From: Anaerovoracaceae bacterium
GTDB lineage: Bacteria > Bacillota > Clostridia > Peptostreptococcales > Anaerovoracaceae
NCBI GenBank assembly: GCA_045642565.1
Contig: JAZUJE010000008.1
Span: 38,223-62,222, forward strand
Length of the DNA stretch: 24,000 nt
Direction of reading: 5' to 3'
Below, one piece after another: positions 1-14,359 of this stretch (the first letter of the stretch is position 1; every line of letters begins with the position of its first letter). A program made the translations under genes and the position numbers. The notes under the pieces are model-generated. The model ran no database searches. It was not told the DNA's origin and saw only the letters and a program-made list of their open reading frames with translations.

Positions 1-1299
1 GTGAAACAACGTATGTCTATTGTTGTGCAAATGGTTATAGCAATTTTCCATCTTGGCAATCTTATCTTGCGGTATCCCTCCTGCAAGCTCCGGCTTGAAT
101 CTGTACACTCCTGAATCAAATGTAAACATATTGAAATTATAAGATTGCATACTAATTCCACACTTTGTAAGGTTGTACTTAAGTACACCTTCTAACGCCC
201 GTAATGCAGGGAATGTAAACATAGAAAATTCAGTGTCATTTCTCGCAGGATTATTTAGATTTATTATTGCCTGTTTTAGCAAGGTTACTATATTTTGAGG
301 AAGAGCTTCTTGAGAGATAGTCGGTAATTTACTGTTGTAATCATCATCAACTCTAACTTTGTTTATTGAAATGCCATATGCGCTTTTCAAAACTTGAATA
401 AAGTCTCCACATTGAAGAGTCTCTACAACACCGGTTGTAATAATTTGAAACAGATTATTCTTTTTACCTTGGACAGTCATTTTTATATCATTAAATAACG
501 TAATTTGAGTCTTTTCTTTTCCAAATGTCAATGACCAACTTTTTTTATTTCCGGTTTTAGCCTTAGACAATTCAATTCCTTGACATTCTTCTTGAAGTTT
601 AACAAGCAGATCATCTATGTTTTTTTCATTAACAGGACTAATAATATAACCAGAATTTCCATCTAAATCACGAATTACTTTATTCTCAAATATAGCGCTT
701 TTTGCAAGTTTATCGGCCCTATCGTTGTACTTGTTGTTCGAGTGGCCACTTACTTTTACGAATTCTATAGAAATAATGCCGGATTTATCATCAATGTATC
801 TTTTGTAATAACTTGTTAATGATGTTTTTGCCTGCCATTCACCAGAAGCCCATTTTCCTATACCTTCATAATCATAAAACACTGTCATATTGTCAAAGCC
901 ATTTTTCCATGACCAATCCACTGCATTCATAACAGCTATTATTTCGCCAGCAACATTACGAAGCTCAATATATTTTTCGTTTTTTCCGATATTACATAGT
1001 TCCACATACACATCAGATGGTGCAAATAAACACACTCCAGATCCATACGCTTTTTTCCCCGCATCAAAACTACCATCCGTAAAAGCTACAACTTTACCTT
1101 TTTCAATACGAGGCAACACATCATTATTCATTACTATATCTATATCGTTTAAAAAAGCTTCTGCCTCTTCGACAGATTCAAAGCTTTTGTATATGGCTCC
1201 TGAATAACCTTCAATTGCAGTTTTGCACTCTTCCCATGATTTAAATATGCCAGTACGAAGGCCTTGCTTAACAGCATATATTTTTACTTTACTTCCCAT
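1..1299 (-). CDS. RNase H1 (hybrid-binding domain + RNase H domain) fused to an RnlA/LsoA-like repeat domain and HEPN (Rx4H) domain; C-terminus cut by window edge
   Basis: Absent from the ORF track because it runs off the window. My own minus-strand translation from ATG 1299-1297 gives 433 codons with no stop down to base 1. RBS AGAGGAG lies at 1308-1314, 8 nt upstream, inside the end of the previous gene. The N-terminus KIYAVKQGLRTGIFKSWEECKTAIEGYSGAIYKSFESVEEAEAFL is an RNase H1/viroplasmin-type hybrid-binding domain. The DEDD set is present in the usual contexts: FTDGS (D75), NVAGEIIA (E119), FYDYEG (D143), NDRADKLAK (D196). KSWSLTFGKEKTQITLFNDIKMTVQGKK resembles the RnlA/RNase HIII TBP-like repeat. 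The C-terminus FPALRALEG...NNRHTLFH carries Rx4H (R428-H433, bases 18-1). Confidence 0.8.
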   Translation of the reverse strand, partial: MGSKVKIYAVKQGLRTGIFKSWEECKTAIEGYSGAIYKSFESVEEAEAFLNDIDIVMNNDVLPRIEKGKVVAFTDGSFDAGKKAYGSGVCLFAPSDVYVELCNIGKNEKYIELRNVAGEIIAVMNAVDWSWKNGFDNMTVFYDYEGIGKWASGEWQAKTSLTSYYKRYIDDKSGIISIEFVKVSGHSNNKYNDRADKLAKSAIFENKVIRDLDGNSGYIISPVNEKNIDDLLVKLQEECQGIELSKAKTGNKKSWSLTFGKEKTQITLFNDIKMTVQGKKNNLFQIITTGVVETLQCGDFIQVLKSAYGISINKVRVDDDYNSKLPTISQEALPQNIVTLLKQAIINLNNPARNDTEFSMFTFPALRALEGVLKYNLTKCGISMQSYNFNMFTFDSGVYRFKPELAGGIPQDKIAKMENCYNHLHNNRHTLFH

Positions 1300-1301
1300 A
1301 T

Positions 1302-2456
1302 CTATTTCTCCTCTGCAATGCTTGCCTTTTTGTTAGACTTCATTTCTTCCTCAGAAAATCCATTCTCTACAATTATTCTATACGCATCAATTATTGTTCC
1401 TGCGATTTCTCCAATTCTGTTTTCGACCTGATTGATATCTGCCAAGTTAATAATAGAATCGTTTTGAGCGGGATCCGAATGAAGTTCATGACATCGAATG
1501 CTTTCCCATGTAGTAGCAAGTTTATCTGATACAAATTCATTTCGACGTACATCACGTATGTATTTTTCGAGCTTCTTTTTTCTCAATGCATTGCCTATGT
1601 CAGCAATCTCAGGATTACTCTTATATGCATCAAATGTAAAAAATTCTTTTTCAATCAATAATTTAATTACAAATCCTTCGAAAACTTTTGCAAAGGGATA
1701 TAGTATCGGATTGTAGAGTGGTATGTTTAGGTTATTTTCTTTCACCACTTTTAATATTCCTATAGCGCTAATAAGTGTATCTTGGTCATTTTTATAAAGG
1801 AACGAAAAAGCCTGCTTTGATATTCTTTCTTCGGCTAATAAACGTATTTCTTTAAACTCATCTGCTGAAGCTAACATTGCCTTTTGTACTTCATTTTTAT
1901 TCTTTTTTGGTACATAAAGCATTGAATTTTCAATATTACTAAGAGGATTAATACTTTTAATTATTCCCAACACTTCTGTGAAAAGCAAAGAGGATTGACC
2001 TTGTAGCAATAGTGTTCCAGTTTTGTATTGTGTAATAGTAAACTTTTCATTTTTGTTTTGCAGTTGTATACGATAAAACTGCGTTGAATTCGTTTCAAAT
2101 AATGAATAATCTTCAAAGTGGTTGATAATAGCATTTTTTATTTTCTCTATTTTTTCTTCGCTATCTATCTTAATTGAGGTATGTATCTGTATCGTTTTTT
2201 GAGGAATACCATGAGTTTCTTTTTCTTCACCAAAACATTCCACAAGTTTAGGAGTTTCCTTCTCGAAAACAATTTTAGATGATATTTCTCCCTTAAAATA
2301 AACAATTATTGAATATTCATCTCCACTTATCTTATAACCATATCCGTTATTAATTATTTTTTCCTGTTTAATGGGAAAAGAATTTTGTTCCAAAATATTT
2401 CTTATTTTTTGAATTGCGAATTCCTTTTGATATTTAAAATCCACACTTTGTCCCAT
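1302..2456 (-). CDS. RnlA/LsoA-family HEPN RNase toxin-like protein (NTD + repeat domain + HEPN domain)
   Basis: The ORF track gives 1302..2474 from a TTG. I prefer ATG 2456-2454 (MGQSVDF...), which has a GAGGAAG RBS at 2464-2470, 7 nt upstream. It has two TBP-like modules, including FTITQYKTGTLLLQGQ, the signature shared by RnlA/LsoA and the RNase HIII N-domain. The C-terminal helical domain has YPFAKVFEG and SIRCHELH (Rx4H; R at 1494-1496, H at 1479-1481), matching the RnlA Rx4H arrangement. Confidence 0.7.
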   Translation of the reverse strand: MGQSVDFKYQKEFAIQKIRNILEQNSFPIKQEKIINNGYGYKISGDEYSIIVYFKGEISSKIVFEKETPKLVECFGEEKETHGIPQKTIQIHTSIKIDSEEKIEKIKNAIINHFEDYSLFETNSTQFYRIQLQNKNEKFTITQYKTGTLLLQGQSSLLFTEVLGIIKSINPLSNIENSMLYVPKKNKNEVQKAMLASADEFKEIRLLAEERISKQAFSFLYKNDQDTLISAIGILKVVKENNLNIPLYNPILYPFAKVFEGFVIKLLIEKEFFTFDAYKSNPEIADIGNALRKKKLEKYIRDVRRNEFVSDKLATTWESIRCHELHSDPAQNDSIINLADINQVENRIGEIAGTIIDAYRIIVENGFSEEEMKSNKKASIAEEK

Positions 2457-2470
2457 GCCAGTACTTCCTC

Positions 2471-3367
2471 TCAATTCTCGTTATATGATCTATCAATTAG
2501 TGGCTTGGCTTTTTCAAAATCAGCCTTATTATGTATTATGACTTCAACATCACCGGTTGCCCAATGACCGATTTTAGAGGTATCTCTGGTAAAACCTTCT
2601 TCATAATCAATAGTAGTTACATCAAGCCGGAGATGCAAAAGCAACCTGTTATTGAAAACCTCTACGCAAACAAAATTCTTGATTTTCTTAAATGCCGTAT
2701 AGAGTTTCAAACTGTTTTCGCTGATGTCATCGCCAAGACTCAGAATATAATTTCGGAGATCATCATATAACGTTTTTATCTCAAGCTTTGCATTTTTGTA
2801 TTGCTCAGCAAAAGATTTATCTTTCGTCTGCTTTGCGGCAGGCACAACATCATTGTCTGGAATTGCATCTGCAATGTTTTCATTGACCTGCTCAAACATA
2901 AGCAAATCATCACCAAACTTTTTATATCTGATCAGGCTGATGTTTCGATTCATTTGCTTGATAGCAGATTCGTCATACTTTGTGAAATCGCCGGCGACAC
3001 ATACTACGCGAGGCATGGTCCAGTCAATGCTGTCAGCTTCTTTTAAACCAAGCTTTTCTATCACAAGCACCTTGAAGCTATCTTTGTGATCTAACAACCA
3101 GTTGAGATAAAAGAGACCTTGGTTAATGACATTCTCTTTCATGGAACGCTTGTACTCAAAAATGACAGGGCAATGGTTTTCATCAATACCTATGCTGTCC
3201 ATACGACCACCGTCTGTTGTTCGGTATTCCGACGCAAGAAATGTTACGCCAAAGAAAGTGGTCATGTTATTTTCAATGACAGTTTGCAGTTCTTTTTCAA
3301 GAGTTACTGTACCGCTCTGATATTCCGTAACAGTTCCTTTTATGTTGAATAATTTAATGTCAGCCAT
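2471..3367 (-). CDS. PD-(D/E)XK nuclease (NucS/DUF91-like N-terminal domain) with DUF5655-like C-terminal domain
   Basis: 298-aa ORF with RBS AAGGAAGG upstream of ATG 3367. The N-terminal core GRMDSIGIDENHCPVIFEYKR fits D...E-x-K of the restriction-endonuclease fold. The tail ...LHLRLDVTTIDYEEGFTRDTSKIGHWATGDVEVII resembles DUF5655. Family names are from memory. Confidence 0.6.
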   Translation of the reverse strand: MADIKLFNIKGTVTEYQSGTVTLEKELQTVIENNMTTFFGVTFLASEYRTTDGGRMDSIGIDENHCPVIFEYKRSMKENVINQGLFYLNWLLDHKDSFKVLVIEKLGLKEADSIDWTMPRVVCVAGDFTKYDESAIKQMNRNISLIRYKKFGDDLLMFEQVNENIADAIPDNDVVPAAKQTKDKSFAEQYKNAKLEIKTLYDDLRNYILSLGDDISENSLKLYTAFKKIKNFVCVEVFNNRLLLHLRLDVTTIDYEEGFTRDTSKIGHWATGDVEVIIHNKADFEKAKPLIDRSYNEN

Positions 3368-3382
3368 AATAAACCGCCTTCC

Positions 3383-3595
3383 TTAATTCTTCTTATCGGG
3401 TACAAAATCCATGATATCGTTTGGTTCCACCTCAAGGGCAGCACAAATCGCACCGATGACGTCGGTGGTGATATCTTTATCGTTGGCAAGCTTGTACATC
3501 TGATAGTGGGTGATGCCAGCGGCTTCTTCCAGATCCTTTTTCTTCATGTTTCTGTCAACAAGGATGTGCCACAATTTCTTATAACTAACAGCCAT
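3383..3595 (-). CDS. XRE/Cro-C1 family helix-turn-helix transcriptional regulator
   Basis: 70-aa ORF with RBS AAAGGAG upstream. KKDLEEAAGITHYQMYKLANDKDITTDVIGAICAALEVEPNDIMDF is a typical short HTH_XRE protein. It is the first gene of the four-gene operon. Confidence 0.85.
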   Translation of the reverse strand: MAVSYKKLWHILVDRNMKKKDLEEAAGITHYQMYKLANDKDITTDVIGAICAALEVEPNDIMDFVPDKKN

Positions 3596-3636
3596 TTTGA
3601 ATCTCCTTTATGAGCTATTTGGCGCTGGATACAATA

Positions 3637-3675
3637 ATACTAATATAGTATATCACAGTTCGACTGGAAAATCAA
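3637..3675 (-). promoter_or_regulatory. Sigma-A type promoter of the XRE-led operon with an overlapping palindromic operator
   Basis: On the minus strand: TTGATT (3675-3670), a 17-nt spacer, then TGaTATACT extended -10 (TATACT = 3652-3647). The palindrome ATACTA-n3-TAGTAT at 3637-3651 overlaps the -10, consistent with autoregulation. Confidence 0.45.
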
Positions 3676-3745
3676 GAATATGATAAGAATTTCAAACTTT
3701 CGACAAGAAAAATAATGATCTGTTTGAAAGAATCAGAAGAGCAAT

Positions 3746-3807
3746 TTGCCGCTATCGGCAAAAACATTCGATGTTTTTACCAACTTTTTTTCGAATTTTG
3801 CCGATAG
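3746..3807. repeat. Inverted-repeat set: palindrome TTGCCG-CTAT-CGGCAA plus a 12-bp perfect inverted repeat
   Basis: The palindrome is at 3746-3761. CTATCGGCAAAA (3752-3763) is the exact reverse complement of TTTTGCCGATAG (3796-3807), with a 32-nt spacer. The two structures are mutually exclusive. Confidence 0.5.
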
Positions 3808-3810
3808 AAC

Positions 3811-3846
3811 AGAAAAATCCGGCCCTGCCGTATGGCAGAGCCGGAT
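3811..3846 (-). terminator. Rho-independent terminator downstream of the 3888-4193 gene
   Basis: GC-rich hairpin ATCCGGCcCTGCC-GTAT-GGCAGaGCCGGAT at 3817-3846. On the minus strand it is followed by TTTTTCT (3817-3811), about 40 nt after the stop. Confidence 0.7.
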
Positions 3847-3887
3847 CGTGGTTTCAATAAGGGCTGAAAGCCCGTCATTCAAAGAAG

Positions 3888-4193
3888 TTATATCTCGTCT
3901 TTTAGGTAGTCCGCGTAGGGTGCTTTCGTGGTAACGAAGGTATCGAAAGCGAATTGTGCTCCAAGGCGGAAGCCGGTGATGAAACTGTCGAGGGTAGATT
4001 CGCCGTTGACGGATGCCCAGGCATCGACATATTGAAGGAAGCGTTTCTTTTCCTCGCCGGAGAGTTTGTCCGTGAGGAAATCTTCGCTTTCGTTCAGCGT
4101 CTGCATATCTCGCTGCACCTTTTTGTTCTGCTCGGAGCTTCGCGCCTGCGGATCGATATTGCCGTAGTAAAACTCTTCGATAAAACTATTCAT
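3888..4193 (-). CDS. Small conserved hypothetical protein (FYYGNIxP motif) of the kind carried by Clostridia integrative/conjugative elements
   Basis: 101-aa ORF with strong RBS AAGGAG 7 nt upstream and its own terminator. It sits in a locally GC-richer block. The family is recalled only loosely, so no name is assigned. Confidence 0.55.
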   Translation of the reverse strand: MNSFIEEFYYGNIDPQARSSEQNKKVQRDMQTLNESEDFLTDKLSGEEKKRFLQYVDAWASVNGESTLDSFITGFRLGAQFAFDTFVTTKAPYADYLKDEI

Positions 4194-4220
4194 GGCAGTT
4201 TCTCCTTAAATTTAGTGAGA

Positions 4221-4255
4221 AACCCGTGCGTCCATGCCTTAAAAATGTAGTATTT
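4221..4255. repeat. Copy A of a ~35-nt dispersed repeat (promoter-like region upstream of the 3888-4193 gene)
   Basis: AACCCGTGCGTCCATGCCTTAAAAATGTAGTATTT aligns with 8610-8645 at about 30 of 36 columns, in the same orientation. Confidence 0.6.
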
Positions 4256-4310
4256 TCAATAGTTTTTGTTCGCGTTCTCTCAGGTAAGTTCTACCCTTTA
4301 TGACCAATTA

Positions 4311-4375
4311 GGAAGATACAAGACGATATGGGAAGTTATAGGTCGTTATGGGAAGATACAGGAAGATAAGGGAAC
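4311..4375 (+). repeat. Iteron-like array of GGAAG(A/T)TA motifs in helical phase
   Basis: GGAAGATACA at 4311, GGAAGTTATA at 4331, GGAAGATACA at 4351, GGAAGATAAG at 4361 and GGAAC at 4371. It can also be read as about 3 copies of a degenerate 20-mer (..CGATATGGGAAGTTATAGGT / CGTTATGGGAAGATACAGGA..). Confidence 0.55.
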
Positions 4376-4522
4376 ACTTTTTGATGCAAAAGCACCGAAG
4401 TTCAAGTCCGTTATTCACGCCCGACCAGATTGCACAATGAAAAAGCTCAATAATATTGTCCAAAACGGATATAATGATAACGAAATCACGTTTTGAAATT
4501 CAACGAATGTGTTTAATAATAA

Positions 4523-4551
4523 TTAACAAATGTCTTTAAATGTGCTATCAT
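4523..4551 (+). promoter_or_regulatory. Putative sigma-A promoter for the ATPase gene
   Basis: TTAACA (4523-4528), a 17-nt spacer, then TGcTATCAT (-10 at 4546-4551). It lies 35 nt upstream of the GAGGTG RBS and ATG 4586. Confidence 0.45.
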
Positions 4552-4585
4552 ACTGTCATAGAAAAGCATAAGTAGAGGTGCTAAT

Positions 4586-5866
4586 ATGGACTATAAAAAG
4601 CGAATTGTCGATAATTTACTCGATTTGAAATTGGAATCATTTGGTGCCACCTTGATAAAAGGTCCCAAAGGATGCGGCAAAACCACATCTGCAAAGCAAA
4701 AAGCAAAAAGTTATGTGGAATTTCAAGATGAAGAAGTGCGCGATAATTTGTTGGCAGTTGCTGAAACTGCTCCCAAAAAACTTTTGATTGGTGAAAAGCC
4801 ACGCCTTTTTGACGAATGGCAGGATGCACCGAAACTTTGGGGAACAATTCGCAAGGATATTGACGACAGCGGTGAAAACGGGCAATATATTCTGACGGGT
4901 TCATCCTCCAAAGACGTCAAAGTTGCGCATACCGGAACGCTCCGTATCAGCCAGTTACAGATGTATCCAATGAGCTTATACGAAAGTGAAGAATCAAACG
5001 GTACGGTTTCCTTGCTTGATCTTTTTGATAACCCCGACTCGTTTGACGGTTGCGAATCAAACCTAACAATAGACGATTTAATTTTTGCTATTTGCAGAGG
5101 AGGATGGCCTCGTGGACTTTTGAACAAAACGCCCCGCTCCAAATTGGAAATTGCAAAAGACTTATTCAAGCAGACTTATTCAGTGGACATTTCTAACATT
5201 GACGGCAAAAAGCGCAACGCCAGATGTGCTCAAGCAATCCTGCAATCTTATAGCCGCAATATCTGCACTTTGGCAGAATCGAAAACGATCATAGGAGATG
5301 TGCAGGCAAATTATGATGTCAGTCCGGCTACCATTTATGACTATATACATGCCCTTGAAAAGTTGTATATTATCGAGGATGTAGAAGCGTGGTGTCCGGC
5401 GATTCGTTCCAAGAGCAATCTCCGTTCTTCACAAAAGAGAAATCTGATCGACCCGTCTGTTGCCGTCGCTGCGCTTGGTCTGTCTCCAGATTATTTCAAC
5501 ACCGATTTCAAGACGCTCGGCTTCTTATTTGAATCGCTTTGCATTCGGGATTTGAAAATCTATTCTTCCGCTTTTGACGGAAAAATGTCCTATTATCATG
5601 ACCGATACGGATTGGAGGCAGATGGTGTTTTGCACCTGAACGACGGCAGATATGCTCTACTTGAATTCAAACTCGGCTCCAAAGAAATTGAAATGGGTGC
5701 AAAGCATTTGTGCGATATTGAAAAACTGATCAAAGAATACAACAAAAAAGAAAACCAGTGTCCGCTTCGGATTCCGGATTTGAAAATAGTTATCACCGGC
5801 GGACAGTACGGATATAAACGCGAGGACGGAGTGTTTGTTATCCCGATCGGATGTTTGAAAAATTGA
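4586..5866 (+). CDS. AAA_14-type ATPase with C-terminal DUF4143 (PD-(D/E)XK-like) domain
   Basis: 426 aa. Walker A is GPKGCGKTT and Walker B-like is LFDEWQ, followed by YILTGSS. The C-terminal GLEADGVLHL...ALLEFKLG fits the D/E-x-K pattern typical of DUF4143. Confidence 0.85.
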   Translation: MDYKKRIVDNLLDLKLESFGATLIKGPKGCGKTTSAKQKAKSYVEFQDEEVRDNLLAVAETAPKKLLIGEKPRLFDEWQDAPKLWGTIRKDIDDSGENGQYILTGSSSKDVKVAHTGTLRISQLQMYPMSLYESEESNGTVSLLDLFDNPDSFDGCESNLTIDDLIFAICRGGWPRGLLNKTPRSKLEIAKDLFKQTYSVDISNIDGKKRNARCAQAILQSYSRNICTLAESKTIIGDVQANYDVSPATIYDYIHALEKLYIIEDVEAWCPAIRSKSNLRSSQKRNLIDPSVAVAALGLSPDYFNTDFKTLGFLFESLCIRDLKIYSSAFDGKMSYYHDRYGLEADGVLHLNDGRYALLEFKLGSKEIEMGAKHLCDIEKLIKEYNKKENQCPLRIPDLKIVITGGQYGYKREDGVFVIPIGCLKN

Positions 5867-6003
5867 AAACTGCTTGATTCGGTCATGGCAAACTCTGCTT
5901 ATTATGAATTACTTTTTTCTGTGCACCACTTGAGCCCCAACGTTTCTCGACAATAGTTAAAATTACAAAAATATAGCAATCACAATCAATAGGAGCAATT
6001 AAA

Positions 6004-7695
6004 ATGTTAGATGCAAAAAGACTTTTGGAATTCGAATATTTTCCGAGCGAATTACCCGAGTGCTTTACTTCAAAAGGATTAGCACAACATTATTCGGAAA
6101 TAAAAGGCCAAATTAATTCTCATTCATTTCCTTCATCACTTCCCTTGGAGTTTTCAATTTACAAAGGGGAAAACTCACGGCGAAGAATGGCGTTGCCGAA
6201 TCCAATTCATTATTTCAAAATTGTAGATTTGTTGGTCGAAAACGAAAGGGACTTATTTGATCTCTTTGAAAAAAGTGATTATTCGCTAACAAAGCCTTCG
6301 ACCGATCAAAGCGATACACAAAAAAGAGCATATAATAGGGTGTCAAACAATCCTATGCAAACAAGACTTATCAATGAGAAAAATTTTTGCGATAATACCA
6401 TTTGTATAAAATTAGATATAAGTAATTTTTTTGATAGCATTTATACTCATTCGATTTCATGGGCCATACATACAAAAAATGTGGCTAAACAAAAAACAGG
6501 CGATAAAACGCTTTTGGGCAACAAGATTGATAAAGCGTTACAAGAACTTAATTACGACCAAACACATGGGATATTGGTCGGCAATGCAGTTTCAAGAATC
6601 ATTTCTGAAATAATACTTTGTAAAATTGATGCTGAAATAAAAGTAGCATTTCCTAATATAAAAATGTGTCGTTTTGTTGACGATTATTCTTTTTACATCA
6701 AAGAAAATGAGTCGCCAAACGCCATTATTTCTTTTGTTCGCAATCGTTTGTTAGAATATGATTTGGTACTAAATGAAGCAAAAACAAAATTATATAACGC
6801 TCCATTTGTTTTAGAGCGAAGTGGAATAGATGAAATTAAAGCGATAAATACACATGATGCCTATACCTACTATAACAGACTTATAATCATGTTTGACAAA
6901 TACAAAGATTTATCCTTGTTAAAATATGGATTGTCAATATTATCACCAATCATAAATGATAGAAGCTTTCACACGGTATTTCCGCTTTTAAATAATTTAT
7001 GGGTTACATATCCTTCCTTAGCCGAAAAAATCTTGCCGATTTTTTATTCAAAAAAAGATTTGTTTGATTCAAAAGAAAAAAATGTTTTTAAAACATCATT
7101 ATGCTCAATAATTAATTTAGGCATTCAATACCGTCAAGAAGCAGAAACCATTTGGGCAGTTTGGGGAATGACTCTGTTTGATTTTAATTTTAATCAGAGA
7201 TTATTTGAAAACTTATGCACATCCAATAATGACTTGGCAATAATTATTGCAGCAGTTTATATGAAAAAATATGGTTATAAGTATTATGATGAAGTTATAA
7301 ATGAATTGGTCAAACGAATTACAGACGAATCGATCGATTCTTCCCCCAAAAACAGAAAAGATATATATTTTCCACATTGGTTGTTGATATATGAGCTTAC
7401 CAAGAAAAACATAGTCTGCAACACAACCTTTCAAAGTGTCAAAACTGATCCATTTTTCAAAAAAATATATGATTTAGATGTAGATTTCTATGATTGCAAT
7501 ATAGTACCGAATGCCAATGAGAAGGTTAAAGTAAAAGCAAAAATGAGCGAAATGGACAAGCAGAATTTGTCTGTATTGCTCGAGATGATTGTACCGGAAA
7601 AAATGTCAAATAACGAAAAAATAAAAGAAATAGTTGAGAGAATTAACAGCATTGTTTTTGATAGCGACGAAAATTGGGTTTATGATATACCGTAA
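6004..7695 (+). CDS. Abi/UG-type (defence-associated, non-retron, non-intron) reverse transcriptase with long helical C-terminal domain
   Basis: 563 aa with RBS AGGAG. RT motifs: RRRMALPNPIHY; IKLDISNFFDSIYTHSISWA (motif A, D138); HGILVGNAVSRIISEI (motif B); RFVDDYSF (motif C, DD at 6679-6684); LVLNEAKTKL (motif D/E). About 280 aa of helical tail follows, as in the AbiA/AbiK/UG classes. The subclass cannot be assigned by eye. Confidence 0.85.
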   Translation: MLDAKRLLEFEYFPSELPECFTSKGLAQHYSEIKGQINSHSFPSSLPLEFSIYKGENSRRRMALPNPIHYFKIVDLLVENERDLFDLFEKSDYSLTKPSTDQSDTQKRAYNRVSNNPMQTRLINEKNFCDNTICIKLDISNFFDSIYTHSISWAIHTKNVAKQKTGDKTLLGNKIDKALQELNYDQTHGILVGNAVSRIISEIILCKIDAEIKVAFPNIKMCRFVDDYSFYIKENESPNAIISFVRNRLLEYDLVLNEAKTKLYNAPFVLERSGIDEIKAINTHDAYTYYNRLIIMFDKYKDLSLLKYGLSILSPIINDRSFHTVFPLLNNLWVTYPSLAEKILPIFYSKKDLFDSKEKNVFKTSLCSIINLGIQYRQEAETIWAVWGMTLFDFNFNQRLFENLCTSNNDLAIIIAAVYMKKYGYKYYDEVINELVKRITDESIDSSPKNRKDIYFPHWLLIYELTKKNIVCNTTFQSVKTDPFFKKIYDLDVDFYDCNIVPNANEKVKVKAKMSEMDKQNLSVLLEMIVPEKMSNNEKIKEIVERINSIVFDSDENWVYDIP

Positions 7696-7869: not shown

Positions 7870-8514
7870 ATGTTAAACAAATATTTTAGAATGGATGGAA
7901 ATAATAGTCTTGATTTTATGTATGCAAACATTGCAGTAAAAAATATATATTTTGCGTTAATCTCATTGGACTATATCTTTGATTCCGACAAGTATAATAT
8001 TGGTGTCTACCATGATGAACACACATATTACTTTTTCCACATTCAAAGTTTGCTAACTGCTTGCGGAAATATAGCTAATGTTTTTTATAATCTGGGTGTT
8101 CATAATGGACGTCGATCAACCGAACGTTGCCGAAGACTGCGTAATACATTCAATATAAGCAAGGGCATGTATCAACTTGTTTTTCAAAAAGAAGCACGCA
8201 ATACGAACGAGCACTTTGACGAACGTTATGAAGAATTCGGCGGAAATTTGGGAGACTATAATTTGTTAGACCATGATACAGATGCATATATGAGAGCTGT
8301 AATACAAACCAATCCTCATTTAAGAACATATGACATAGAGAATCATATATATCATACATTCATTCGCAGATCGGGAAGATTTGAACGATTTGAGTACAAC
8401 TTAATAGAATTACGACGAGAATTAGAGCGAATGCGTGATAGCATAATCGATAATCCAGTTTTTTCTTCTGCTTGGGTAGAAGAAATGCCAATAGAACAAG
8501 TCGAGAGACATTAA
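7870..8514 (+). CDS. Small HEPN-like (Rx4H) protein, putative RNase effector partner of the RT
   Basis: 214-aa helical-looking protein. It has a single EARNTNEHFDER motif (R110 at 8197-8199, H115 at 8212-8214) with the polar Asn after Arg that is common in Abi-type HEPN domains. It is on the same strand as the RT and 174 nt downstream. The call rests on one motif plus context. Confidence 0.5.
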   Translation: MLNKYFRMDGNNSLDFMYANIAVKNIYFALISLDYIFDSDKYNIGVYHDEHTYYFFHIQSLLTACGNIANVFYNLGVHNGRRSTERCRRLRNTFNISKGMYQLVFQKEARNTNEHFDERYEEFGGNLGDYNLLDHDTDAYMRAVIQTNPHLRTYDIENHIYHTFIRRSGRFERFEYNLIELRRELERMRDSIIDNPVFSSAWVEEMPIEQVERH

Positions 8515-9381: not shown

Positions 9382-10056
9382 ATGATAAATAGGGTTAAGG
9401 GATCCATTCAAGAAAATAAAGATAAAAAGCAATACATGAAAATTCTAAACATTCAGGACAAGCATAACAAAGAATTCTTTGATATGGATGGCTGTGGATT
9501 GGAAATTGAATTTGGTGTTATCTATGAACCAAGATGCAGAGTCTATATTGCTACGGGGCTTAAAAAAATGAAGGAGTTTGTAGCTAATAGGGGTAAATTT
9601 GTTTTGGATGACAGCATCGGAAAATTTTTGAATGTGGAAATTGTTTTAAATCCATTTACTTTGGAAGATCTTAAGCCTATTTTTAATGGTATTGTTGATA
9701 TATTGAATTTCTACGAAAACTTTGTATTTGATGATAACTGTGGTATACATGCGAATTTCAGAGCTGATGATAAATTAAAGGAGAAGTTTTACAACATTAT
9801 CACAGATGGTCGGTATGACAGTGAGAGGTTCAGTCATAGTAAATACAAAAAAGATTTTAACGAAACTGTTATTAATTCTGATGGAACGAAGAAAACATAT
9901 GAAGAGTACCTCGTTTATCAAAATACAGTTGGTGCAAAATACTGTGGCATTAACTTCCTTAAGCCAAACTTGGTAGAAGTGAGGACATTGAATCTTGAAT
10001 GGGAAGATATAGAGTTTTTTTATAGCGCGTATGAAGAATCTAAAGGCTTAATATAA
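9382..10056 (+). CDS. Putative amidoligase (Amidoligase_2 / glutamine-synthetase-like fold), short form
   Basis: 224 aa. The motif series is CGLEIEF (ExE), NVEIVLNP, CGIHANF, then NLVEVRTL (E-x-R). This order matches my recollection of the amidoligase family. The assignment is tentative. Confidence 0.45.
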   Translation: MINRVKGSIQENKDKKQYMKILNIQDKHNKEFFDMDGCGLEIEFGVIYEPRCRVYIATGLKKMKEFVANRGKFVLDDSIGKFLNVEIVLNPFTLEDLKPIFNGIVDILNFYENFVFDDNCGIHANFRADDKLKEKFYNIITDGRYDSERFSHSKYKKDFNETVINSDGTKKTYEEYLVYQNTVGAKYCGINFLKPNLVEVRTLNLEWEDIEFFYSAYEESKGLI

Positions 10057-12694: not shown

Positions 12695-14359
12695 ATGAAG
12701 AAGCGTGTTTTAAGTATTATATTATCAGTAATAGTGTTTATTTTATTGTTTACTGTAATAGTTGTGGCTAATGAGCAAGATGTTGATAGACTCATTATGC
12801 CTGAGCTAACCCAAATAGATTACAATGATGATTCATTTGATATTACCTGGCCAGAGAACCAGCTTTATACAGGCGAAGAATTAACCCCAAAGCCTGTGAT
12901 TAAATTTGGAGATTTTACGCTTGAAGAGGGTAAAGATTACACAGTTTCTTATGAAAATAATATCGGACCTTCATACTTTGAATGGGCGAAGATTACGGTT
13001 CAATTTCAAGGAGATTACAATGGCACTGTTTCTGAATATTTTGATATAAGAACGGTTTGGCAGGAACTTCAGAGAGCTGTTTCTTCTGGATATAATGTCT
13101 CAGCCGGAAAAGAATATATTTCCGAAGTATATTCTGAGATTGATGGTGTTACAACTGTTACATTGCTAAAAGATATACCTATGACTGAATTTGATACGGA
13201 GGGTGTAAGTATAAAAGGCATCAGCAATAAGGTAATACTTGATTTAAACGGGCATACGATAGATAGAAATAAAACAGAAATTTTTGTTATTGAAAGCGCA
13301 GAATTAACTCTTTGCGACAGTAGCGATGCAAAAAATGGAAAGATTGTGAATGGGCTTGCGAATTACGGTGGTGCTATTAAAATAACTCAAGGTGGCAAGC
13401 TTACTGTTGAAAATGGCACAATTTCAAATTGCCGTGCAAAATATGGCGGTGGCGCAATCTATGCTGAAAGTGGAGATGTTGTAATTAGCGGTGGTACAAT
13501 TACAGAATGTTCTGCCAGTGAAGCAGGCGGAGCAATCAGCATGAAAAATGGCAATTTGACAATGTCTGGTGGCACAATAAGTAAATGTTATGCCAGCAGT
13601 GTAGGCGGAGGTGTTAATGTTGATAGAGGCACTTTCAAGATGACAGGAGGATATATTATAGAGAATCAAGCACGCAACAACAGTTATGGTGGCGGAGTAT
13701 ATTTAGACTCAACAAATGGAATCTTCATCATGACTGGTGGTTTTATCACTAATAATACTACTCTTTATGCAAACAATTTTGGTGCAGGTGTTTCATCCGG
13801 AAAAAGTGTAACTATCGGTGGCACTGCTGTTATTGAGAATAATCTAAAAGGTGTATCTTTAGGCATGGAACGAGGGACGGCAGATGATCTTTATATAAGT
13901 TCAAGCAGACCGATTTCGATAGCTATCGGTGAAGACTCTCCTGTGGAAGGTATGCATGTAGGGGTTGCTATGATTAAGAATGGGCATAGTATTGCCGGTG
14001 CTTTTACCCAAAACTGCGATAGCGATTTAAGTGAATATTTCTTTTCAGATGATATAAGTTTAGAAACAAAGTATTTGAATGCTTGTATGGAACTGTCTGT
14101 AAAGGAAATGACTGTAGAAAAGAGCGAAGGAGTGGTGTCGACTACATTTTATTCTTTAGAGGAAAAAGAGGTTATTTTCTATCTTGCGGTATATGATGAA
14201 AATGGCAAGATGTGTGGAATTGCTTCAAAAACCATTACAATTAATCATGGAGCGAATAGTGTCTCTATGGATCTTCCAAGTGAGCCTTATAGCGAAGGGA
14301 TAGTGTTTGCTCTTAATAAGGACACAGCTTCACCACTTTGTAAAGAGGTGGATTTTTAA
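12695..14359 (+). CDS. Secreted/anchored right-handed beta-helix protein with GGAI-type (PMP-like) repeats and an N-terminal MBG-like domain
   Basis: 554 aa with RBS AAAGGAAA and an N-terminal hydrophobic signal/anchor. It has repeated G-G-(A/G)-(I/V) turns: NYGGAIKIT, KYGGGAIYAE, EAGGAISMK, SVGGGVNVD, SYGGGVYLD. YTGEELTPKPV...GKDYTVSYENN is MBG-like. Confidence 0.75.
   Translation: MKKRVLSIILSVIVFILLFTVIVVANEQDVDRLIMPELTQIDYNDDSFDITWPENQLYTGEELTPKPVIKFGDFTLEEGKDYTVSYENNIGPSYFEWAKITVQFQGDYNGTVSEYFDIRTVWQELQRAVSSGYNVSAGKEYISEVYSEIDGVTTVTLLKDIPMTEFDTEGVSIKGISNKVILDLNGHTIDRNKTEIFVIESAELTLCDSSDAKNGKIVNGLANYGGAIKITQGGKLTVENGTISNCRAKYGGGAIYAESGDVVISGGTITECSASEAGGAISMKNGNLTMSGGTISKCYASSVGGGVNVDRGTFKMTGGYIIENQARNNSYGGGVYLDSTNGIFIMTGGFITNNTTLYANNFGAGVSSGKSVTIGGTAVIENNLKGVSLGMERGTADDLYISSSRPISIAIGEDSPVEGMHVGVAMIKNGHSIAGAFTQNCDSDLSEYFFSDDISLETKYLNACMELSVKEMTVEKSEGVVSTTFYSLEEKEVIFYLAVYDENGKMCGIASKTITINHGANSVSMDLPSEPYSEGIVFALNKDTASPLCKEVDF

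Follow-up and report, generated by a model that had tools for sequence, protein, structure and literature searches.

The first 3,675 nucleotides (nt) of a 24,000-nt stretch of DNA from an Anaerovoracaceae bacterium (assembly GCA_045642565.1, contig JAZUJE010000008.1, positions 38,223 to 62,222; hereafter the window, meaning the whole stretch) carry four tightly packed minus-strand genes, which encode an XRE regulator, a candidate defence nuclease (gene 2), an RnlA-family protein (gene 3) and an RNase H1-RnlA fusion (gene 4). We consider it likely that window 1..3675 covers the 5' portion of a longer, co-oriented gene string, which joins three modules found apart from one another elsewhere (an XRE leader, a PDC-S18 cassette and an extended RnlAB-type module) and lies in a mobile-element defence hotspot, in a gut genome of Clostridia type. 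An initial annotation, made from the letters of the sequence alone, had proposed one new four-gene system. This was not upheld, since an RnlB gene is present, gene 2 and the XRE gene are unlinked to the HEPN genes outside the lineage of the window, and a fusion accompanied by RnlB has been known since 2013. What was observed directly, from the genes present and their domains to the conservation of catalytic residues, the linkage and the limits of the modules, is set out below ahead of the inferred mechanism.

Layout and modular composition of the gene string

The features of the string and of its immediate upstream region are as follows.

3595..3383, minus strand: XRE gene, 70 amino acids (aa)
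3367..2471, minus strand: gene 2, 298 aa
2456..1302, minus strand: gene 3, 384 aa counted from the ATG
1299..1, minus strand: gene 4, 433 of 471 codons in the window, open at the window edge
3675..3647, minus strand: promoter-like site TTGATT-17-TATACT with an extended -10 TG, upstream of the XRE gene, 9/12 consensus positions matched
3762..3745, minus strand: terminator-like hairpin of 7 bp, upstream of the promoter-like site
3847..3816, minus strand: terminator-like hairpin of 14 bp, upstream of the promoter-like site
3888..4193, minus strand: DUF6809 gene, 101 aa (DUF6809, E=1e-23), backbone neighbour of the XRE gene

The four genes are separated by gaps of 15, 14 and 2 nt, in agreement with the initial annotation, which had also correctly given each gene its own ribosome-binding site: a purine-rich site precedes every start (AAAGGAGA, AAGGAAGG, GAGAGGAAG and GAGGAG). 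If gene 3 began at the alternative TTG at 2474, it would run 4 nt into gene 2; the ATG start agrees with the family N-terminus 'MxxSIxF'. A single promoter had been claimed for the string; a promoter-like site does stand before the XRE gene, but such sites are no commoner than chance across the region (17 found, 16.1 expected from shuffles), so that only its position speaks for its function. Two hairpins (3847..3816 and 3762..3745) end the upstream DUF6809 unit and delimit the XRE-led unit at its 5' end. Across the four genes only one other terminator-like match was seen, a weak stem of 6 bp within gene 4 (1176..1160). Ratios of non-synonymous to synonymous divergence (dN/dS) relative to loci about 95% identical were 0.035 for the XRE gene, 0.035 for gene 2, 0.12 for gene 3 and 0.05 for gene 4, within an overall range of 0.03-0.13, which points to purifying selection on all four genes.

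The string does not end at base 1. Two contigs (L009 and L242), 99.6% identical to window 1..3487 and 1..3471, respectively, continue past this point with the last 38 codons of gene 4, followed by genes for RnlB and for a protein with TPR repeats and a cold-shock domain (TPR-CSD), and then by hsdR, hsdM and hsdS; in these contigs the gene string goes on with at least RnlB and TPR-CSD. RnlB (121 aa; PF15933, E=1.3e-14) starts 9 nt after gene 4 and is co-oriented with it, whilst the TPR-CSD protein comprises 417 aa (TPR_19 1e-14, CSD 7e-10). The absence of an RnlB/LsoB-like antitoxin noted earlier is correct for the interior of the window, but the antitoxin gene lies just beyond its edge, where the initial annotation had allowed for a further gene. 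Gene 4 and RnlB are adjacent and on the same strand there, as are the toxin and protein antitoxin of a type II operon.

A total of 242 loci were gathered and annotated with open reading frame (ORF) calls and iterated profiles, and anchors were de-replicated at 90% identity; the linkage counts comprise 145 anchor proteins in 81 clusters, 55 of them RNase H1-RnlA fusions. RnlB was located directly downstream in 46/50 of the de-replicated RNase H1-RnlA clusters. A TPR-CSD-family gene was found at most two genes downstream in 11/43 and directly upstream in 3/49, and a gene 3-like gene lay upstream of the fusion in 3/49. PDC-S18 was upstream of the fusion in a single cluster, which belongs to the lineage of the window. 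Within the species-genome sample (L010-L089, about 45 fusion loci), neither gene 3, gene 2/PDC-S18 nor the XRE gene adjoined the fusion. The order XRE-gene 2-gene 3-gene 4 is kept in L001-L009 and L242, which are 95-99.6% identical to the window, so that its conservation there carries little information; beyond this lineage the XRE gene and gene 2 are not linked to genes 3 and 4, and the four-gene order is thus not conserved among homologues.

The block of gene 3, gene 4, RnlB and TPR-CSD recurs without gene 2 in several contexts, among them L090, where Fic/GmrSD genes are adjacent and the block is on a conjugative element, in L091-94, where it follows a different HTH_26 gene, and in L115-122. 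All four proteins of the block have diverged together from the window lineage, with identities of 57-61% (gene 3), 73-74% (gene 4), 55-60% (RnlB) and 57-59% (TPR-CSD). The nearest loci without gene 3 (L010 and L011) show lower identity to the window in each of the three proteins that they share with it (gene 4 64-65%, RnlB 50-55%, TPR-CSD 48-52%), indicating that the four-gene form is a subclade of the three-gene form.

Breakpoints in DNA homology coincide with gene boundaries, including the gene 2/gene 3 junction. Loci with the RnlA block match window DNA only over 2-2068, and a locus with a stand-alone gene 2 homologue (L099) only over 2467-3392; loci with alternative cargo match at 88% over 2856-4309, weakly down to 2475 and not at all further left. 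Synonymous divergence (dS) between the window and L001 was 0.09 for gene 3, 0.22 for gene 4, 0.41 for gene 2 and 0.34 for the XRE gene, a four-fold range between adjacent genes, and this difference by module indicates a mosaic history with recent recombination within the gene string. The G+C content rises from about 0.30-0.34 in genes 3 and 4 to about 0.40-0.42 in the XRE, DUF6809 and PDC-S01 genes, and the step between window 1-3000 and 3000-6000 is consistent with modules of different origin.

The XRE protein was confirmed as a Cro/C1-type helix-turn-helix regulator (HTH_26, Pfam, E=1.3e-18). The DUF6809 gene keeps its position beside the XRE gene in L001-L008 and L107-L113, and in L107 the XRE protein is 100% identical despite different downstream cargo. 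A DUF6809-XRE-gene 2 leader at 78% identity precedes cargo encoding PLD, Dam methyltransferase, N6/N4 methyltransferase and helicase-nuclease proteins. These comparisons suggest that the XRE gene with its promoter is mobile-element backbone leading variable cargo. The arrangement DUF6809-terminator-promoter-XRE (3383-4309; L107-L113) looks like a cargo-leading cassette of an integrative mobile element, and TnpV, TraG-like and HipA genes are found near it. More generally, operon-like packing in a defence hotspot can mimic a single multi-gene system; the XRE-led leader carries interchangeable cargo.

Gene 2 matched the PADLOC model PDC-S18 (PDLC04946) with E=1.5e-132, its residues 1-297 aligning to profile positions 18-322 of 365, and its C-terminal tail is DUF5655 (Pfam, E=6.6e-13). 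The N-terminal domain holds invariant D57, E71, K73, Q83 and Y87, a PD-(D/E)XK core with QxxxY. Its AlphaFold2 model was of moderate quality (predicted local distance difference test score (pLDDT) 70, predicted template modelling score (pTM) 0.48), hence the fold match was used as support for the nuclease domain alone; the best Foldseek matches were EndoMS/NucS 5gke (1.3e-4) and 2vld (5e-4), followed by SfsA, Shedu and Card1 nucleases. Gene 2 failed the NucS sequence models (NucS_C E=0.084, 13.3 bits with a threshold of 24; NCBIfam NucS 15.9 bits with a threshold of 216) and is therefore NucS-like in fold only. The earlier description as a NucS/DUF91-like nuclease with a DUF5655-like tail is right; gene 2 does not belong to the NucS family itself. 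Like NucS/EndoMS, gene 2 has the PD-(D/E)XK fold with conserved D...ExK and QxxxY residues; unlike them, its nuclease domain is N-terminal, the NucS N-terminal DNA-binding domain is missing and a DUF5655 tail stands in its place.

The family of gene 2 is very large, with more than 7,600 matches, and a homologue at 89% identity stands alone among unrelated neighbours. Sequence and context together suggest that gene 2 is a separable single-gene module, a predicted defence nuclease. It matches the PDC-S18 model end to end and forms a single-gene unit elsewhere, its defence function being a prediction only; here it lies between the XRE gene and the RnlAB-type module and is probably co-transcribed with both. 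No paper on PDC-S18 was found in the searchable literature, and exact-sequence look-ups of gene 2 and of gene 3 (both starts) gave no match.

Two divergent RnlA-family proteins and their relatives

Gene 3 had been described as a full-length RnlA/LsoA-like protein, and several lines of evidence agree. The motif SIRCHELH is present, and the AlphaFold2 model (pLDDT 86.9, pTM 0.71) shows two alpha/beta domains followed by a helical domain. The top nine PDB matches of this model in Foldseek were all E. coli RnlA and were the only ones with E<=0.001, the next having E=6e-3. Eight of them are full-length RnlA chains (E 1.6e-9 to 1.6e-7, 387-403 columns) and the ninth is the NRD-HEPN truncation 7aex (7.6e-7, TMt 0.52); the template modelling (TM) scores over full length are only 0.28-0.39 because the domain orientation differs. 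Amongst 64 homologues of gene 3, residues R321, C322, E324, H326, D328 and E260 were invariant and K257 nearly so; the active site residues K257, E260, R321 and H326 are intact, and the family has an FEGF helix. Direct phmmer matches of gene 3 in a library of 1.84 billion proteins include proteins that pass the Pfam thresholds of RnlA_toxin and RnlA-toxin_DBD. By sequence and model, gene 3 is thus predicted to be a full-length RnlA-family protein of TBP-TBP-HEPN architecture, in a short form.

The Pfam matches of gene 3 itself were weak (RnlA_toxin E=0.011, 16.5 bits with a threshold of 27; DUF3378 E=0.012). Searched against PDB sequences, the profile of its family returned only RNase HII/HIII, via the C-terminus of long forms, and no RnlA. 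A scan of genome contigs with gene 3 as its only seed confirmed no relative, whereas one with the gene 4 family alignment succeeded. With 143 representatives at E<=1e-3, the family of gene 3 is a small one; its short forms (382-394 aa) have been kept, at 57-78% identity, in a number of separate contexts.

The fusion character of gene 4 was also corroborated. Full-length copies in homologues 97-99% identical comprise 471 aa, with a hybrid-binding (Cauli_VI/viroplasmin) domain, an RNase H1 catalytic domain, a TBP-like NRD and a HEPN domain in this order, the latter with the motif NNRHTLFH. The N-terminal half matched Cauli_VI (PF01693, E=1.4e-18) and RNase_H (PF00075, E=1.7e-6, 28.7 bits with a threshold of 25.8), and the HEPN domain matched RnlA-toxin_DBD (PF19034, E=1.1e-12, 48.9 bits with a threshold of 27) and PF18869 (E=2e-5); for the NRD, RnlA_toxin (PF15935, E=4.8e-4) was below threshold for the window protein. 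A family profile of 15 sequences found LsoA (5hy3, 5e-29) and RnlA (4i8o/6y2p, 5.5e-20), aligning RnlA 105-354 and LsoA 69-338, which correspond to the NRD plus DBD, and its PDB matches for the RNase H half include 2kq2, 6vrd, 1qhk and 3bsu. Invariant across 15 homologues were D75, E119, D143, H186 and D196 of the RNase H domain and R428 and H433 of the HEPN domain.

Genes 3 and 4 are very divergent RnlA-family paralogues with intact catalytic sites. A profile-profile comparison (hhalign) of the two families gave 95% probability (E=4e-8) in a region that spans the TBP-like domain and the first helix of HEPN, whilst direct BLAST between them was not significant (E=3), so that the term 'paralogous' draws on profile and structure evidence only.

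Hosts of the RNase H1-RnlA fusion include Clostridia, Bacilli, Veillonella, Ureaplasma, Fusobacterium, some Deltaproteobacteria and an archaeon, along with IMG/VR viral contigs. On the latter (L164-L181) the fusion is paired with RnlB and is in some cases longer, 570-625 aa; such pairs may be carried by prophages, or encoded by phages that use them against rival phages.

At 600-630 aa, the majority of gene 3 relatives are longer than gene 3; they end in an RNase HII/HIII catalytic domain (PF01351; PDB RNase HIII 1e-36) of roughly 230 aa with a DESGKGD motif. Directly after 12/15 of these RNase HIII-fused clusters is a gene for a TPR-CSD-family protein of 416-450 aa, and RnlB is there in none. 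This partner is homologous to TPR-CSD over full length, including a C-terminal CSD-like domain (hhalign 100%, E=4e-62), a relationship seen only by profile-profile comparison, as BLAST of TPR-CSD against the 416-aa partner was not significant. An ancillary profile of PADLOC, 'TPR repeats containing protein fused to cold shock-like domain', recognises it as well (1e-51). No PADLOC match was found for gene 3, gene 4, RnlB or the RNase HIII-fused form. A two-gene module, consisting of a 'two-headed' TBP-TBP-HEPN/RNase HIII protein with an invariant Rx4H and then a TPR-CSD-family protein, is present in L095 (7001-10118) and in about 30 further loci (L123-L162).

Relation to known systems, proposed mechanism and alternatives

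The anti-T4 type II systems RnlA-RnlB (RNase LS) of E. coli and LsoA-LsoB of a plasmid share with the module described here a TBP-like NRD and HEPN domain (DBD), the Rx4H motif with an upstream R/K-x-x-E helix, and an RnlB-family gene directly downstream of the toxin. The module departs from them in that gene 4 has hybrid-binding and RNase H1 catalytic domains in place of TBP1, in that there are two tandem RnlA paralogues but a single RnlB, along with a conserved TPR-CSD gene, and in its host, a Gram-positive gut anaerobe, with no Dmd-type phage context known. Naka and colleagues are said to have found in 2014 that RNase HI stimulates RnlA. E. coli RnlA has a TBP1-TBP2-HEPN architecture and is active as a canonical HEPN dimer, the groove of which is blocked by RnlB (PMC8266594); according to the title of a 2017 paper by Naka et al., given in the reference list of that article, RnlB requires RNase HI to inhibit RnlA. 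Two-headed HEPN RNases, and HEPN toxin-antitoxin pairs of the HEPN-MNT kind (SO_3166/SO_3165), are alike in that a HEPN RNase toxin with dimeric active sites is checked by the product of a neighbouring gene (PMC8266594), but here there is no MNT nucleotidyltransferase; the neutraliser would be of RnlB type, possibly together with TPR-CSD, and an RNase H-fold nuclease domain is fused.

RNase LS-family HEPN proteins fused to viroplasmin/RNase H, in an operon with the antitoxin RnlB, were described by Anantharaman et al. in 2013 (PMC3710099), along with other members fused to an RNase HIII-type TBP-like domain, and RNA in RNA:DNA hybrids was their proposed target. The architecture of gene 4 matches the first of these forms exactly, and gene 3 is their TBP-like plus HEPN form. 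As far as a text search shows, that survey contains no fusions to a C-terminal RNase HIII catalytic domain, no tandem and no TPR-cold-shock partner. In the searchable literature, no paper connected RnlA to TPR or cold-shock proteins or, apart from the 2013 survey, to RNase HIII fusions. PDC-S18 and the pairing of the RNase H1-RnlA fusion with RnlB are already known or catalogued. Three features did not turn up in that literature: the conserved tandem of two RnlA paralogues and a lone RnlB, the TPR-CSD partner, and the RnlA-like/RNase HIII fusions that have TPR-CSD but no RnlB.

By analogy, the third module of the string, comprising gene 3, gene 4, RnlB and TPR-CSD, would act as an RnlAB-type toxin-antitoxin or abortive-infection system, with a type I restriction-modification system next to it. 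We infer its toxicity, neutralisation partners, trigger and substrates from the known systems, and a labile RnlB, direct binding of the toxin and autoregulation would be carried over from E. coli RnlAB only (PMC8266594). RnlB would bind the dimeric HEPN groove and thereby silence the RNase or RNases; once phage infection halts the expression of host genes or eliminates RnlB, RNA would be degraded by the HEPN RNases and the infection aborted. In the fusion, the RNase H1 and hybrid-binding domains probably steer cleavage to RNA:DNA hybrids or couple it to them, in agreement with what is known of E. coli, where RnlA-RnlB depends on free RNase HI. Gene 4 and RnlB would form the canonical RnlAB-type pair, into which gene 3 may have been recruited as a second RnlA-type RNase. 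Since TPR-CSD is also found beside the RNase HIII-fused relatives that lack RnlB, it is most likely a protein that binds nucleic acids and regulates or senses RnlA-type RNases. The natural fusions to RNase H1 and, in the relatives of gene 3, to RNase HIII provide a direct handle on the mechanism by which E. coli RnlA-RnlB depends on RNase HI; they suggest RNA:DNA hybrids as the substrate that is targeted or sensed. The TPR-cold-shock partner recurs whether RnlB is present or not, which suggests that RnlA-type systems include an uncharacterised component for regulation or sensing.

How the parts of the RnlAB-type module would work together allows several readings. In one, which we hold to be possible although somewhat doubtful, the block consists of nested pairs, with TPR-CSD controlling gene 3, RnlB controlling gene 4, and each RNase acting as a homodimer. 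The frequent TPR-CSD-family gene directly after RNase HIII-fused relatives of gene 3, none of which has RnlB, is consistent with this, as are the full-length homology of the two TPR groups, the bracketing of gene 4 and RnlB by gene 3 and TPR-CSD, and the need of an active HEPN RNase, normally, for a neutraliser. However, an antitoxin role of TPR-CSD is putative, and the TPR-CSD of the window lineage is orthologous (48-52%) to those of gene 4-RnlB-TPR-CSD loci without gene 3 (L010 and L011), implying that it has a role with gene 4 and RnlB alone.

A slightly less probable reading, and a tentative one, is a heteromeric RNase of the kind suggested in the initial annotation, in which gene 3 and gene 4 would form a HEPN heterodimer with a composite Rx4H site, blocked by RnlB, and TPR-CSD would sense RNA/DNA or provide targeting. 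Five of the seven short gene 3-type clusters with downstream sequence immediately precede an RNase H1-RnlA gene; the short forms lack the RNase H domain of their long relatives, and gene 4 supplies one. The co-divergence of all four block proteins, the single RnlB gene for two RnlA paralogues and the requirement of HEPN RNases for dimerisation (PMC8266594) point the same way. Gene 4-type proteins nonetheless occur without gene 3 in 46/49 clusters, hence gene 3 is not needed, and the HEPN domains of the two proteins are very divergent. With about the same tentativeness, the block may be taken as an integrated multi-component RnlAB derivative with a heteromeric HEPN RNase, in which TPR-CSD would be the sensor or regulator and the dedicated partner of RNase H-fused RnlA-type nucleases, replacing RnlB in the RNase HIII forms.

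Far less probable is one integrated, unnamed system of XRE regulator, nuclease and two HEPN RNases without an RnlB-type antitoxin, which comparative genomics has largely refuted: RnlB directly follows gene 4, gene 2 and the XRE gene adjoin none of about 45 species-level fusion loci, gene 2 is a catalogued single-gene candidate that stands elsewhere alone or with unrelated cargo, DNA homology breaks at the gene 2/gene 3 junction, and the four-gene RnlA block exists without gene 2. What favours it, besides a gene order kept in close relatives of the window, is the tight spacing behind one promoter-like site and the lack of a persuasive terminator within the string, so that all genes may be co-transcribed. 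This also weighs against our reading of the string as separate modules, as functional cross-talk, such as regulation of the whole string by the XRE protein, may occur. The same holds for locus L162, where a 71-aa XRE protein (6764-6979), 41% identical to that of the window, is encoded 21 nt upstream of a distant, RNase HIII-fused relative of gene 3 and its TPR-CSD partner; the association of XRE with RnlA-like proteins may therefore not be purely accidental. A further point on that side is the context survey itself, which was a sampled one with home-made ORF calls and iterated profiles. Small HTH_26 regulators may recur in front of RnlA-like modules, as in L162.

That gene 3 is a decaying, non-functional remnant of an RNase HIII-fused gene is equally improbable, for although it lacks the C-terminal domain of most relatives, its catalytic residues are invariant, its dN/dS is low, its model is confident and short forms are conserved in several independent contexts.

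Neighbouring genes in the wider window

Further features of the window, upstream of the gene string, are listed below.

4586..5866, plus strand: PDC-S01 single-gene candidate, AAA_14/DUF4143 ATPase (PADLOC E=9.8e-47)
6004..7695, plus strand: DRT4/DRT6-class reverse transcriptase (PADLOC Drt6 7.6e-108, Drt4 2.9e-100; Pfam RVT_1)
7870-8514, plus strand: 214-aa ORF after the reverse transcriptase, no Pfam or PADLOC match
9382-10056, plus strand: 224-aa ORF, no Pfam match
12695-14359, plus strand: 554-aa ORF, no Pfam match

Neither ARAGORN nor Rfam found a tRNA gene in the window, so the description of the locus as a tRNA-anchored island was wrong for the window; Rfam returned no other RNA family, and a small-RNA antitoxin or riboswitch in the window was rejected. 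A megablast search with window 1-3700 gave no match among plasmids and phages. Relaxase, TraG-like, TnpV and serine-recombinase genes in related loci indicate integrative mobile elements.

The first 8.5 kb or so of the window form a dense stack of defence genes (PDC-S18, the RnlAB-type module, PDC-S01 and the defence-associated reverse transcriptase, DRT), and the locus does adjoin a reverse transcriptase system, as had been stated. The 214-aa ORF at 7870-8514 is possibly an uncharacterised DRT partner. Around the 554-aa and 224-aa ORFs the neighbours are of housekeeping type: a DUF1538 membrane protein, P-II, a PL8 polysaccharide lyase, an SDF symporter and a 1402-aa Big_3 surface protein.

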